64,000 nt of DNA. Source: Betaproteobacteria bacterium. Lineage in GTDB: Bacteria; Pseudomonadota; Gammaproteobacteria; Burkholderiales; SG8-39. Every line of letters starts with the position of its first letter. The stretch's first letter is position 1. Positions 21,643 through 27,374 of the stretch are shown here, piece by piece. The stretch is taken from NCBI GenBank assembly GCA_025356085.1, contig JANXUV010000015.1:449-64448 (forward strand), given 5' to 3'. Position numbers and translations under genes: made by a program. The notes beneath the pieces were generated by a model that saw nothing but the letters and a program-made list of their open reading frames with translations, had not been told where the DNA came from and did not search any database.

Positions 21643-21853
21643 CCGCGCGGCGTACCGCTGGAAGGGCGCGGTGCGGCACGACGAAGAGCACCCGCTGCTG
21701 ATCAAGACCACCGCGGAGCGGTATGCGGAGCTCGAGGCGGCGATTCGCGCCGGGCACCCCTACGAACTTCCGGAAATCATCGCGGTCAGAGTCGAGCGGG
21801 GACTGCCGGCGTACCTGGATTGGGTCTCCGCGGAAACTACCGGCGGAAAATGA
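21608..21853 (+). CDS. cutA: Divalent-cation tolerance protein CutA, internally deleted (81 aa)
   Basis: GGGAGGGA SD precedes ATG 21608. MLLVFTNLPD... and ...YRWKGAV..LLIKTT...HPYELPEII..YLDWV match CutA, but the ~25-aa helix/strand segment between PD and YRW is missing. ATGA coupling to dsbD. Confidence 0.7.
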   Translation: MHMLLVFTNLPDRAAYRWKGAVRHDEEHPLLIKTTAERYAELEAAIRAGHPYELPEIIAVRVERGLPAYLDWVSAETTGGK

Positions 21854-23402
21854 TCAGGATCCTCGCACTCCTCCTTTGCCTGTTCGGCGCCGCCCACGCG
21901 GCGGGCCCGGGCGACCTGCTGGAGCCGGGAAAGGCTTTTCGCATCTCCACGCGCGCTCTCGACGCAAATACCGTGGAAGTGAGTTTCGCGATTGCCGAGG
22001 GCTACTACATGTACCGCGAGCGATTTCGCTTCGCCGCGGGGCCGGGTTCGAAAGCGAAGCTCGGCGCGCCCCAGTTTCCCCCGGGCCTGCGCAAGAAGGA
22101 CGAATTTTTCGGCGAAGTGGAAACCTACCGTAAGCAGGTCGTCATCCGGCTGCCCGTGGAAAACGCCGAGGGGGTGCTGCACCTTACGGTGACCTCACAA
22201 GGCTGCGCGGACGTTGGCGTGTGCTACATCCCGATGGACAGCAGGGCGACAATCCGCCTTGCCGGATTGTCTGCACAATCCGCGCCGCCTGCGGGCGCGC
22301 CGGCGGCCCCGGCGCCGGGATTCTCGCTGCAGGCGAGCGATTTCGAAGTTGCCCGCCTTTTCGAATCGGGCGGGCCACTGCTGGTGCTCGCGAGCTTCCT
22401 CGGCTTTGGCCTGCTGCTCGCATTCACGCCTTGCGTGTTGCCGATGGTGCCGATCCTCTCCGGAATCATCGCGGGCGAGGGCAGGGATCTTGGCAAGCTG
22501 CGCGCATTGCTGCTGTCATCGGCCTACGTGCTCGGCATGGCGGTGGCCTACGCGGCGGCGGGCGTGACGGCCGCCTGGTCCGGCACGCTGCTGGCATCGG
22601 CGCTGCAAAACGCCTGGGTGCTGGGTGCGTTCGCCCTGGTATTCGTCGCGCTCGCCTTGTCGATGTTCGGCCTCTACGAACTCCAGTTGCCCGGCTTCCT
22701 GCACCACCGGCTGCACGCGGCTCACGGGCGCTTGCGGGGCGGCCGCGTCGCTTCCGTCGCCGCCATGGGCGCGCTTTCGGCGATCATCGTGAGTCCCTGC
22801 GTGGCGGCGCCGCTTGCCGGGGCGCTTCTCTACATCAGCCAGACGCGGGATGTTGTGCTTGGCGGTTCGGCGCTTTTCGCAATGGCAATCGGGATGGGCA
22901 TCCCGCTGCTGGTCGTCGGCGTTTCCGAAGGCGCCCTGCTGCCGAAATCGGGACCCTGGATGGTGCGCGTGAAGCATGTGTTCGGCGTCCTGCTGCTTGC
23001 GGTGGCGCTATGGATCGTGTGGCCGGTGCTGCTGCCTTCGGGAGGCAATACGCAATTCGTCCGCATCCAGTCGATCGCCGGGCTGGAGCAGAATCTGAAG
23101 TCGCCGGGCAAGCCGGTGATGCTCGATTTCTATGCCGACTGGTGCGTGTCCTGCAAAGAGATGGAGGCGCTCACCTTCAGCGATGCGCGCGTCAAGCCGA
23201 AGATGGATGGCATGCTGCTATTGCAGGTTGATGTCACCGCCAATACAGCGGAACACAAGGCGCTGCTCAAGCGCTTCCGCCTGTTCGGACCGCCGGGGAT
23301 CATTTTCTTCGACGCGCAGGGCCGCGAGTTGCAGGGCCTGCGGGTGATCGGCTACCAGAACGCCGAACGCTTCCTGAAGACGCTCGAGCTCGCGGGCGCG
23401 CC

Positions 23403-23406
<4 letters not shown>
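21850..23406 (+). CDS. dsbD: Thiol:disulfide interchange protein DsbD
   Basis: ORF trimmed to ATG 21850 with signal peptide MIRILALLLCLFGAAHA. Alpha-domain CADVGVC, TM cysteines FTPCVLPM and SPCVAAP, C-terminal thioredoxin WCVSC. Confidence 0.93.
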
Positions 23407-25192
<1,786 letters not shown>

Positions 25193-25194
25193 TT

Positions 25195-25307
25195 ACCTTC
25201 AGACGATGCAAGTCGTCTCCCGCTTCACCTCCCTGAGCGGGTTGCCCCGACCCCAAGTCGGGGTGTTTTCCGCCCCCGGTTTAGTTCCCCTTTTCCGGGG
25301 GCTTTTT
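25195..25307 (+). ncRNA. Candidate small RNA (unclassified): three stacked hairpins plus an intrinsic terminator; the 5' boundary is a guess
   Basis: Perfect stems at 25201-25218, 25219-25241 (loop TCACCTCCCTG) and 25245-25263. GCCCCCGG/CCGGGGGC at 25272-25302 is followed by TTTTT. The terminator works only on the plus strand, and no plus-strand gene lies upstream. Confidence 0.4.
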
Positions 25308-25322
25308 ATTCCGGCTCCGGGA

Positions 25323-25931
25323 TCAAGTCTGATCCCGGAGCCAGTTGTCCAGTTGTTGGCGCGCTTCTTCGACCCCCTCGCCGCTGCTGCTCGAAAACAG
25401 CTGCACCAGCGATGTCAGCGCGGCCTTGTCGAGAGCGTCTCGGGTGGTCGCGAGCGTTTTTGCCTGCTCGGCGCGCGACAGTTTGTCCGACTTGGACAGC
25501 AGCATTAGCCGCGGCGCAGGCACCGGGCGCAGCCATTCAAGGAATTCGCGGTCGTTCCTGGTGAGTGGATGGCGCGCATCCATCAGCACCACCACTCCGG
25601 CCAGCGTGCCCCGGCCGGTGAGATAGCCCCCTATCAGCGCGTCCCAGCTCGCGCGCAGGGCTTGCGGCACGCTTGCATAGCCGTAGCCCGGCAGATCAGC
25701 CAGCCTACCCACATCCCCGAGGTCGAAGAAATTGATGGTCTGGGTCCGGCCGGGTGTTTTACTGGAAAACGCCAGCCGTTTGCGGCCGGCAAGCGCATTG
25801 ATGGCGCTCGATTTGCCGACATTGGAGCGTCCAGCGAAGGCGAGCTCCGGCCCGGTCTCGGGAGGAAAGTCCCCGACCGCTGCGGCGGACAGAAGGAAAC
25901 GCGCTTGCTGGATCGGGGACAACGGACGCAA
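25323..25931 (-). CDS. engB: Ribosome-biogenesis GTP-binding protein EngB/YihA
   Basis: G1 motif GRSNVGKSS, with DLPGYGY and LSKSDK motifs. The ORF has no ATG. The maximal TTG start is 25982; TTG 25931 is chosen because it gives an N-terminal length like E. coli YihA. Start is uncertain. Confidence 0.85.
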   Translation of the reverse strand: MRPLSPIQQARFLLSAAAVGDFPPETGPELAFAGRSNVGKSSAINALAGRKRLAFSSKTPGRTQTINFFDLGDVGRLADLPGYGYASVPQALRASWDALIGGYLTGRGTLAGVVVLMDARHPLTRNDREFLEWLRPVPAPRLMLLSKSDKLSRAEQAKTLATTRDALDKAALTSLVQLFSSSSGEGVEEARQQLDNWLRDQT

Positions 25932-26000
25932 GCCTATACTGAAAGGTGGAAATTCTAATAAAATCGCGGCTTTCCACGGCAATATTCAGGGAGCTGCCGC

Positions 26001-26648
26001 ATGATCCGACAGTTGGCGTACTTTGCCAGCGCCGCGTGTTTCTGGGTTGCATTTTGGCCTGCTGGCGCGCTCGCTCAAGCCCCTGCCAAGCCCGATGCCG
26101 CGAAGGGTCAGCTCATCGCGAGCCAGACCTGCGCTGCCTGTCATGCGGCCGACGGCAACAGCCAGATTTCGGCGAACCCGAAACTCGCGGGCCAATTCTA
26201 CGAATACCTGCACAAGCAGCTGCTTAACTTCAAGCCCCAGGGAAGCAAGAAGCCCGAACGCGACAATGCGGTGATGATGGGCATGATTGGAAGCCTGTCG
26301 CCTGCCGACCTGAAGGATGTCGCCGCGTATTACGCGTCGCAGAAGCTCAAGCCGGCGGCGGCGAAAGACAAGGACCTCGCCGCGCTCGGACAGAAAATCT
26401 ACCGTGGCGGCAACATCGCCACCGGCGTCGCGGCTTGCGCGGGTTGCCATGGGCCGGCCGGGGCGGGCATGCCGGCGCAGTTTCCGCGCATAGCCGGGCA
26501 ATTTCCGGAATATGTCGAGGCGCAACTCAAGGCTTTCCGTGCCGGCGCGCGCGCGAACGACCCGAACGGCATGATGCGCGGCGTGGTCACGCGCATGAGC
26601 GACCGCGAGATCCAGGCGGTCGCCGAATACGTCGCCGGCCTGAGGTAG
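26001..26648 (+). CDS. Cytochrome c4 (diheme)
   Basis: Signal peptide plus two heme motifs, CAACH and CAGCH. Divergent from engB, as in many proteobacteria. Confidence 0.92.
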   Translation: MIRQLAYFASAACFWVAFWPAGALAQAPAKPDAAKGQLIASQTCAACHAADGNSQISANPKLAGQFYEYLHKQLLNFKPQGSKKPERDNAVMMGMIGSLSPADLKDVAAYYASQKLKPAAAKDKDLAALGQKIYRGGNIATGVAACAGCHGPAGAGMPAQFPRIAGQFPEYVEAQLKAFRAGARANDPNGMMRGVVTRMSDREIQAVAEYVAGLR

Positions 26649-26684
26649 CTGGCAGGGGAATAAACCCAACCTGCGGCTGTTAGG

Positions 26685-27374
26685 ATGGGATGCATGGGAG
26701 CCGGGGAAACGCAGGTCAAGGTCTGGGATGTGCCGGTGCGGCTGTTTCACTGGCTGCTGGTGCTGCTGTTCGCTTTCATGTTCTTCAGCGGCAAGTCCGG
26801 CAGCGAGTGGATCGAGTGGCACATGCGCGCGGGCTACGCGGTCCTCGCGCTGGTGCTGTTCCGCATCCTTTGGGGATTCGCCGGCAGCACCCACGCGCGC
26901 TTTACCAGCTTTCTCGCCGCGCCCTCTGCCTGCATCGAATGCATGAAGCACCTGCTCGCGCGCAAGCCCTCGCCGTACCCGGGACACAATCCGCTGGGTG
27001 GCTGGATGGTGCTGGTGCTGCTGCTCGCGCTGCTGGTGCAAACGGGCACCGGCCTGTTCGCCAACGACGACCTGCTCAGCAATGGGCCGCTCTACGACTT
27101 GATAAGCAAGGCGACCTCCGACCAGTTGACGATGATCCATATCTGGAATTTCAACCTGCTGCTGTTGCTGGCCGGCGCGCACCTAATCGCGGTGCTGTAT
27201 CACGCAGCCTTCATGAAAGAGAATCTCATCGGCGCAATGTTCACCGGCGTGAAACGGTTGCCGGCGGACGCGGCCGGAGGTGTGGTGGCGCGTTTTGCCA
27301 GTCCGTGGCTCGCGCTAGTTCTGCTAGCCGTGACGGCGCTCGCCGTCTATCTGATCGTAAAACGACCTTTCTGA
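26685..27374 (+). CDS. Cytochrome b561 family (Ni/Fe-hydrogenase b-type cytochrome-like) membrane protein
   Basis: VWDVPVRLFHWLLVLLFAFMFFSG and HMRAGY segments, four TM helices with conserved His. Alternative start at ATG 26694. Confidence 0.85.
   Translation: MGCMGAGETQVKVWDVPVRLFHWLLVLLFAFMFFSGKSGSEWIEWHMRAGYAVLALVLFRILWGFAGSTHARFTSFLAAPSACIECMKHLLARKPSPYPGHNPLGGWMVLVLLLALLVQTGTGLFANDDLLSNGPLYDLISKATSDQLTMIHIWNFNLLLLLAGAHLIAVLYHAAFMKENLIGAMFTGVKRLPADAAGGVVARFASPWLALVLLAVTALAVYLIVKRPF

Follow-up and report, generated by a model that had tools for sequence, protein, structure and literature searches.

Identity of the element between hemB and engB

The locus described here raises a simple question, namely what an intrinsic terminator does on a strand where no gene is there to be terminated. 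It lies in a 64,000-nucleotide (nt) stretch of contig JANXUV010000015.1 (assembly GCA_025356085.1) from a Betaproteobacteria bacterium, and this whole stretch is referred to below as the window. The genes hemB and engB are both encoded on the minus strand, and the spacer between them carries four abutting hairpins on its plus strand, the last of which is followed by a U-tract. The initial annotation, made from the letters of the sequence, read this arrangement as an independent plus-strand small RNA (sRNA) of about 110 nt.

A covariance-model scan of the whole window against Rfam, a check that the initial annotation had itself proposed, bore out this reading. The sole match above a gathering threshold was to RF02837 (anti-hemB), at 25216-25310 on the plus strand, at 65.6 bits (gathering score 49.5) and with model positions 1-81 of 81 covered. 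The features by which a member of RF02837 is recognized were found together: the score, the antisense position upstream of hemB, the plus-strand terminator, and the CCUCCCUGA loop with covarying stems. The element is an anti-hemB sRNA gene (RF02837) and the ortholog of ncS04 of Burkholderia cenocepacia. The family is known and published, so the finding itself is not new, and the initial annotation missed that the element belongs to a named family. The parts of the transcript are as follows (SL, stem-loop).

25200 to 25201, plus strand: predicted transcription start, from homology to the ncS04 start; 5-6 nt past the -10-like element
25201 to 25218, plus strand: SL1, the 5' hairpin, AGACGA/TCGTCT; 7 bp with a GCAA loop; outside the Rfam model
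25219 to 25241, plus strand: SL2, CCCGCT/AGCGGG; 6-bp stem with an 11-nt loop
25228 to 25236, plus strand: CCTCCCTGA, the presumed anti-Shine-Dalgarno (anti-SD) seed; last 8 nt of the SL2 loop and the first stem base
25244 to 25264, plus strand: SL3, CCCCGAC/GTCGGGG at 25245-25263; 8 bp, closed by a G-U pair, with a CCCAA loop
25272 to 25310, plus strand: intrinsic terminator, stem GCCCCCGG/CCGGGGGC at 25272-25302; 8-bp G+C stem, 15-nt loop, then UUUUUAUU
25286 to 25293, plus strand: terminator-loop motif UCCCCUUU, within the 15-nt loop

The hemB/anti-hemB motif was described in Betaproteobacteria, especially Burkholderia, by Weinberg et al. 2007, who saw the terminator and proposed a non-coding RNA, the strand being undecidable from covariation. 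In B. cenocepacia J2315, ncS04 is an RNA of 105 nt between BCAL0264 (hemB) and BCAL0265 (engB), in the same <- -> <- arrangement. It is supported by a transcription start site (TSS) at 292949 from differential RNA sequencing, by 3' rapid amplification of cDNA ends (RACE) with ends in the U-tract, by a Northern signal and by co-purification with Hfq. The ncS04 TSS is 1 nt ahead of the first paired base of the 5' hairpin. Since the mapped 5' end lies one base before this hairpin, the window transcript would begin at about 25200/25201 and have a length of about 107 nt. By homology, it would run from there to the terminator at 25272-25310, fold into four stem-loops and be bound by Hfq.

The likeness to ncS04 extends to the position and orientation between hemB and engB, the SL2 loop, SL3, the terminator and the 5' hairpin, and the two lengths (about 107 and 105 nt) agree closely. 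There are also differences. SL1 is short in the window (7 bp), whereas the ncS04 hairpin is longer and bipartite; the window terminator loop has the extra UCCCCUUU motif; and the window host is an uncultured Burkholderiales lineage. Sass 2015 also reported a secondary 5' end at J2315 292987 (plus strand), 38 nt into ncS04 and within the SL2 loop. This corresponds to about 25228-25231 in the window, and one RACE clone begins at CCTCCCTGAGCGGG. A processed form of ncS04 with the seed at its extreme 5' end would, by analogy, resemble the RNase E-processed S17S of Bordetella.

A relationship to the Betaproteobacteria toxic sRNA family (RF02278; bdhR1/ncS27, Bordetella S17) had been thought conceivable, and there is a real resemblance behind this idea. 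A match below threshold was found at 25214-25270, both families share GUCUCC followed by a hairpin with a CUCCUCC(C)UGA loop, and the RF02278 family acts through C/U-rich sites at ribosome-binding sites. The single-stranded CUCCUCC(C)UGA motif, the Hfq association, the betaproteobacterial distribution and the likely action at ribosome-binding sites are thus common to both. However, the match scored 23.8 bits (E = 0.014), which is under half of the gathering threshold of 50. The element has four hairpins instead of two, fixed linkage to hemB is not a property of the RF02278 family, and B. cenocepacia carries both as separate genes in the same genome (ncS03/05/27 versus ncS04). Membership in RF02278 is therefore highly improbable, and that suggestion was dropped despite the shared loop motif.

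Other sRNA families were also compared. Bordetella S17, described as a "highly conserved betaproteobacterial sRNA", was rejected as an anti-hemB representative because it belongs to the toxic sRNA family, and MtvR, an Hfq-binding sRNA of 136 nt, is confined to the B. cepacia complex and is unrelated. Xanthomonas sX13 (RF02232) reached 19.1 bits (E = 0.23) against a gathering score of 50 and was likewise rejected, and the similarity to alphaproteobacterial ar7 was below threshold as well (17.7 bits). Schmidtke et al. grouped sX13 and ar7 as polA-locus sRNAs with apical C-rich loops. The window element resembles them in having several stem-loops with C-rich apical motifs, which in sX13 pair with G-rich ribosome-binding regions, but it has no adjacent polA, sX13 is Hfq-independent and the scores are far below threshold.

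No family of the Spot 42 type was among the Rfam matches up to E = 1. The position at the engB 3' end nonetheless recalls Spot 42 (spf) and ErsA. In E. coli the order is polA> spf> <yihA (engB), and ErsA lies in the polA-engB spacer of Pseudomonas aeruginosa and is sigma-22-dependent. In the window the sRNA converges on engB with a gap of 13 nt. With the E. coli and Pseudomonas arrangements, an sRNA converging on the engB 3' end appears as a recurring arrangement. However, on its other side the window sRNA has hemB in place of polA, and the adjacency to engB is lost in Comamonadaceae. A common origin with the engB-3'-end sRNAs is speculative.

Structure, conservation and strand

The four inverted repeats listed in the initial annotation were all located at their coordinates, and the minimum free energy fold of the plus strand consisted of exactly these four hairpins. 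Its energy was -53.6 kcal/mol (z = -6.0), and none of 200 dinucleotide shuffles folded as well. The tract TTTTTATT at 25303-25310 stands directly 3' of the terminator stem. Read on the minus strand, the same hairpin is followed by GGAAAAC and has no U-tract, so termination is expected on the plus strand only, as had been claimed.

Conservation was examined in 80 fetched loci encoding HemB relatives, a selection that biases any linkage to hemB. The RF02837 model gave gathering-level matches in 53 of the 80 hemB loci, all antisense to hemB, and a model of all four helices found the sRNA in 56 of the 80 and exactly once in the window. In every one of these 56 loci the sRNA was upstream of and antisense to hemB, directly adjacent in 55 and about 1.5 kb away in the remaining one (L068). 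The conservation and covariation in related genomes on which the sRNA proposal had been made to depend were thus present. In six loci (L008, L017, L034, L035, L041 and L078) engB and hemB are adjacent and the sRNA is absent, with a spacer of about 50 nt in L017. Such loci suggest lineage-specific loss, for example in Pigmentiphaga and Polynucleobacter. The locus of a gammaproteobacterium, Aliivibrio finisterrensis (L080), carries two CsrB-family RNA genes upstream of hemB (1-233 and 996-1312), another regulatory RNA next to hemB that is unrelated in sequence to anti-hemB.

Abutting G+C-rich hairpins in an intergenic spacer, together with a fifth palindrome at 25313-25342, could also suggest a multicopy repetitive extragenic palindromic (REP)-type element, or a stack of terminators or stability hairpins serving the flanking genes, in either case with no RNA of its own. 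The initial annotation had named scattered REP-type copies as an outcome that would overturn its proposal. No further copy was found in the 64-kb window, either by the loop pattern with up to 3 mismatches or by the covariance model, and each orthologous locus has one copy. An invariant loop within covarying stems is contrary to what REP elements show, the strand served by the terminator carries neither of the flanking genes, and the ortholog ncS04 is a detected RNA. We therefore give this explanation practically no credence.

All four helices covaried. In alignment A3, whose fit to the model structure somewhat inflates the pairing counts and whose sequences are mutually related, 90.2% of cells were paired as compared with 37-49% in slid-partner controls, 26 of 29 pairs changed on both sides, and none of 500 shuffles reached the observed values. 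In SL1, all 7 pairs changed on both sides and 93% of cells were paired. A hairpin of this type abuts SL2 in nearly all orthologs, with differing sequence and length; it is absent from the 81-position Rfam model but present in the published ncS04 sequence. The SL2 stem covaried in 4 of 6 pairs (99% paired) and the terminator stem in 8 of 8. SL3, whose sequence varies widely between lineages, changed on both sides in 7 of 8 pairs, with 80% of cells paired.

The strand was addressed through the mismatches that each helix tolerates. Only the strand that is read tolerates G-U pairs, where the opposite strand would show A-C. The ratios of G-U to A-C were as follows.

Helix 1: 60:5
Helix 2: 6:1
Helix 3: 19:24 (neutral)
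Helix 4: 37:6

Overall, G-U exceeded A-C by 122 to 36. The selected structure is therefore on the sRNA (plus) strand, and the strand is settled.

These counts bear directly on the possibility that the functional RNA is on the minus strand, as a "hemB motif" cis-regulatory leader, riboswitch-like or protein-binding, in the hemB 5' untranslated region or between engB and hemB. Several observations are compatible with such a leader. Covariation had left the strand undecided in Weinberg et al. 2007, the fold of the minus strand is good as well (-53.0 kcal/mol, z = -4.5), transcription of the B. cenocepacia hemB leader passes through the element, read-through from engB would meet no terminator on the minus strand, and helix 3 has slightly more A-C than G-U (24:19). 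Nevertheless, the asymmetry in helices 1, 2 and 4 points the other way, and a U-tract terminator and a positionally conserved promoter occur on the plus strand only. A plus-strand RNA with defined ends, bound to Hfq, has been detected in B. cenocepacia. The loop reads CCUCCCUGA on the plus strand, while its minus-strand version is Shine-Dalgarno (SD)-like but is not followed by a start codon. We consider a minus-strand leader very unlikely.

The SL2 loop CCUCCCUGA was invariant across all lineages (alignments A1 and A2) while the stems drifted, and CCTCCCTGA was exact in 53 loci and in the window. The terminator-loop motif UCCCCUUU was conserved in the lineages with a GGAAC promoter (see below), and not in Comamonadaceae. 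The earlier emphasis on two C/U-rich loops therefore stood for SL2, but for the terminator loop it applies to only part of the family. Likewise, engB adjoins the sRNA in the GGAAC-promoter lineages only and is apart from it elsewhere. As a constant partner of the sRNA, engB was rejected, since in Comamonadaceae and the Rubrivivax group, where engB is not adjacent, the sRNA is still found beside hemB.

Beyond the U-tract, a further structure was noted.

25313 to 25342, strand not assigned: 13-bp perfect palindrome GGCTCCGGGATCA-agtc-TGATCCCGGAGCC, which spans the engB stop codon and begins 3 nt past the U-tract

The palindrome is single-copy in the window. In close relatives (L001, L002, L003 and L009) this place is taken by an equally strong hairpin (-27 to -35 kcal/mol) of another sequence, and more distant lineages have none. 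The palindrome may or may not be part of the sRNA unit. It could be a 3' stem of the engB mRNA, a block to read-through from the sRNA, or an operator at a hemB promoter.

The promoter of the sRNA

The initial annotation had seen no convincing sigma-70 promoter, and a consensus scan of 24900-25600 agreed, finding no sigma-70-like promoter in that interval. Upstream of SL1, two elements of a predicted promoter of the RpoE (sigma-E, ECF02) type were found instead.

25168 to 25176, plus strand: -35-like element GGAACTTTT
25191 to 25195, plus strand: -10-like element TCTTA, 16 nt after GAACTT and 5 nt before SL1

The pattern GGAACTT-N15-17-TCTNA occurs once in the 64 kb, at this place, as compared with 0.03 expected. 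When the orthologs were lined up on the start of SL1, two upstream blocks became apparent, GGAAC(T) and, 17-19 nt later, TC(T/A)NA ending 5-6 nt before SL1. They are present in the window clade, Gallionellaceae, Sideroxydans, Nitrosomonadales, Dechloromonas, Paucimonas, Paraburkholderia and Pandoraea, and the spacers between them are unrelated in sequence. The pattern stood at that position in 23 of 57 sequences, compared with 0.012 expected from the background rate, and these 23 make up most of its 32 occurrences in 1.04 Mb. Positions left free by the pattern were also conserved, with T after AAC in 22 of the 23, followed by a T-rich run.

The published sigma-E consensus has GGAACTTTT at -35 and GTCAAA at -10 (PMC1804206), and rpoH P3, a sigma-E promoter of E. 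coli, is used by SigE of Bordetella, also of the Burkholderiales (PMC3490749). Aligned on the TSS, the E. coli rybB sigma-E promoter reads GAACTTTT-N16-TCTTA-6 nt-+1 and that of micA GAACTCTT...TCTGA. The window reads GGAACTTTT-N16-TCTTA-5 nt-SL1 in the same alignment, with a -10 and a spacer identical to those of rybB. The strict pattern (G[GA]AAC...) missed the E. coli rybB and micA promoters, which have A or T before GAAC, and the printed alignment served as the control. A sequence of the form GGAACTT-N16-TC(T/A)NA, at the correct distance from the start, is thus present at 25168-25195.

From this promoter-like sequence, we infer that transcription in the window lineage would start from an RpoE/sigma-E-type promoter, which would also account for the missing sigma-70 promoter. 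In the literature mentioning the family, no report of a link between sigma-E and anti-hemB was found. The predicted promoter looks like the one fresh point of this analysis, the rest being already known. The architecture recalls MicA, RybB and ErsA, which are Hfq-binding sRNAs of about 80-130 nt with terminators, although there is no sequence or covariance-model similarity to them and their seeds are different, targeting omp, algC and oprD mRNAs. They are established cases (sigma-22 for ErsA), whereas sigma-E dependence of anti-hemB is predicted from sequence.

Three other approaches to the promoter were set aside. The mapped primary promoter of B. cenocepacia rpoE, tried as a sigma-E anchor, resembles a sigma-70 promoter (TACAAT) and was of no help; no motif is given in the paper on the B. 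pseudomallei sigma-E transcriptome; and a sigma-54 reading of TGGCGACAATCTT has the wrong GG/GC spacing and a spacer not conserved between lineages.

A different promoter was found in 16 orthologs of the Comamonadaceae and the Rubrivivax group (L006, L018, L020-L023, L026, L027, L032, L033, L036, L038, L049 and L055-L057). These have TTGAAA-N17-TGnTAAATT, a sigma-70 promoter with an extended -10, and engB is not adjacent in these lineages. This looks like a promoter replacement, sigma-E-type versus sigma-70, on a conserved sRNA. Whereas the window has an unambiguous GGAACTTTT-N16-TCTTA, the Burkholderia-group version could be of either type, sigma-E or sigma-70.

Seed, hemB overlap and meaning

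The genes on either side of the sRNA matched their family profiles, in agreement with the initial annotation of two minus-strand neighbours.

24131 to 25129, minus strand: hemB, porphobilinogen synthase (NF006762, 490 bits)
25323 to 25982, minus strand: engB/yihA, a YihA/YsxC EngB GTPase (TIGR03598, 214 bits), convergent with the sRNA

The engB stop codon lies 13 nt past the sRNA U-tract. Over 21820-27374 the order of the window is dsbD, a glyoxalase-like gene, hemB, the sRNA, engB, cytochrome c4 and cytochrome b561, and that of B. cenocepacia is similar (dsbD, hemB, ncS04, engB, cytochrome c4 and a cytochrome c biogenesis protein). The setting of the sRNA is a conserved neighbourhood of periplasmic redox and cytochrome genes. 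The nearest relatives of the window HemB are from uncultured Burkholderiales metagenome-assembled genomes (82-86% identity). Named genera reach only about 70-75%, Paraburkholderia about 72%, so the window is not from Burkholderia proper. An ATG open reading frame of 100 amino acids at 25206-25508 (plus strand) begins within SL1 and runs antisense through engB; it is mechanical and unsupported, and its counterpart is listed yet unsupported in the B. cenocepacia supplement.

The invariance of the loop while the stems drift is the signature of a trans-acting seed. The SL2 loop would act as an anti-SD seed, pairing with UCAGGGAGG-like purine-rich ribosome-binding sites and blocking translation of the target, and the second C-rich motif in the terminator loop may assist in part of the family. 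The invariant loop gives good grounds for proposing an anti-SD seed in the anti-hemB family, and there are precedents in sX13, whose C-rich loops pair at ribosome-binding sites (PMC3771888), and in S17 and the toxic sRNAs, whose C/U-rich sites act there as well (PMC11722255).

Only two ribosome-binding sites in the window have at least 8 nt of complementarity to the loop. One of them belongs to the di-haem cytochrome c4 gene (26001-26648, plus strand), the next gene beyond engB, where UCAGGGAG at 25986-25993 stands 7 nt before the ATG and is complementary to the invariant CUCCCUGA of the loop. The site is also present in L061 and L072 and is partial in L009, L029 and L037, while many orthologs have an ordinary SD only. 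Judged by this complementarity, the cytochrome c4 mRNA may be targeted in trans, which would connect the sRNA with cytochrome c in addition to haem synthesis, and we regard this candidate as a lead only.

The sRNA would also form a perfect duplex with a hemB leader transcribed from the other strand, and it may modulate hemB in cis. In B. cenocepacia, the primary TSS of hemB maps 248 nt ahead of its start codon, 5 nt beyond the engB stop. The leader there thus covers the full length of ncS04 in antisense, and transcription occurs on both strands. In the window, no convincing match to a sigma-70 promoter of hemB was found on the minus strand near the engB stop, and hemB may therefore be co-transcribed with engB. 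No minus-strand terminator lies between the two genes. With the 13-nt gap, any hemB transcript, whether started at the engB 3' end or reading through from engB, must consequently cross the sRNA gene. A cis-antisense effect on hemB is physically plausible.

It could be asked whether this effect is the only one, with the sRNA controlling hemB by transcriptional interference or through a duplex with the leader that is sensitive to RNase III, having no targets in trans and a C-rich loop that serves only to initiate a kissing-loop contact. In favour of this, none of the 56 loci departs from the antisense position upstream of hemB, including those without a neighbouring engB, and the sRNA has full complementarity to a leader for which transcription is known in B. 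cenocepacia. A 2026 preprint also favours antisense control of haem synthesis. However, the loci were picked through hemB, which biases the linkage, and the same preprint reports some copies uncoupled from hemB, along with an association with low-salinity isolates. A pair in cis stays complementary whatever mutates, which leaves nine loop nucleotides that are invariant across orders unexplained, and Hfq binding with an anti-SD sequence is a hallmark of trans-acting sRNAs. A purely cis-acting regulator is thus unlikely, and loop invariance and Hfq binding speak for a function beyond cis action.

Taken as a whole, an anti-hemB gene with a presumed anti-SD seed, a possible cis effect on hemB and a predicted sigma-E-type promoter is, with high probability, the best explanation of the locus. 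Several points weigh against it. The evidence for a transcript is all transferred from B. cenocepacia. The pairing counts are somewhat raised by the fit of alignment A3, and helix 3 lacks strand asymmetry (19:24). The anti-SD mechanism is drawn by analogy, and the anti-hemB family has no validated target in any species. As regards the promoter, ncS04 levels were unchanged in biofilm, stationary phase, starvation, osmotic stress, low pH and low iron, a set that does not include envelope stress and heat; this steadiness is not predicted for a strongly stress-induced sigma-E promoter. The Burkholderia-group promoter, GGAAAC...TATCATA, can also be read as having a sigma-70 -10 (TATCAT), and no sigma-E consensus defined in Burkholderia itself was found.

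The main confirmation is that a reading of raw sequence can recover a genuine sRNA gene, one whose family has long been listed in Rfam. The anti-hemB RNA occurs widely in Betaproteobacteria and has neither a validated target nor a known regulator. A sigma-E-type promoter would make the RNA an envelope-stress output in this lineage. More broadly, and only as a tentative proposal that we hold to be less probable than its opposite, anti-hemB might serve most Betaproteobacteria as their RpoE/sigma-E-dependent sRNA for envelope stress, in a role like that of RybB, MicA and ErsA, and might tie envelope stress to haem and periplasmic cytochrome c, with a swap to a sigma-70 promoter in Comamonadaceae and the Rubrivivax group. 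More speculatively still, it might occupy an ancient sRNA slot at the engB 3' end, shared with Spot 42 and ErsA. The sigma-E-type promoter, the invariant anti-SD loop and the antisense hemB leader together lead to a specific and testable hypothesis, namely that the sRNA responds to envelope stress and acts on the synthesis of haem and cytochromes. The promoter swap between lineages, if true, would be a clean example of the regulatory rewiring of a conserved sRNA.

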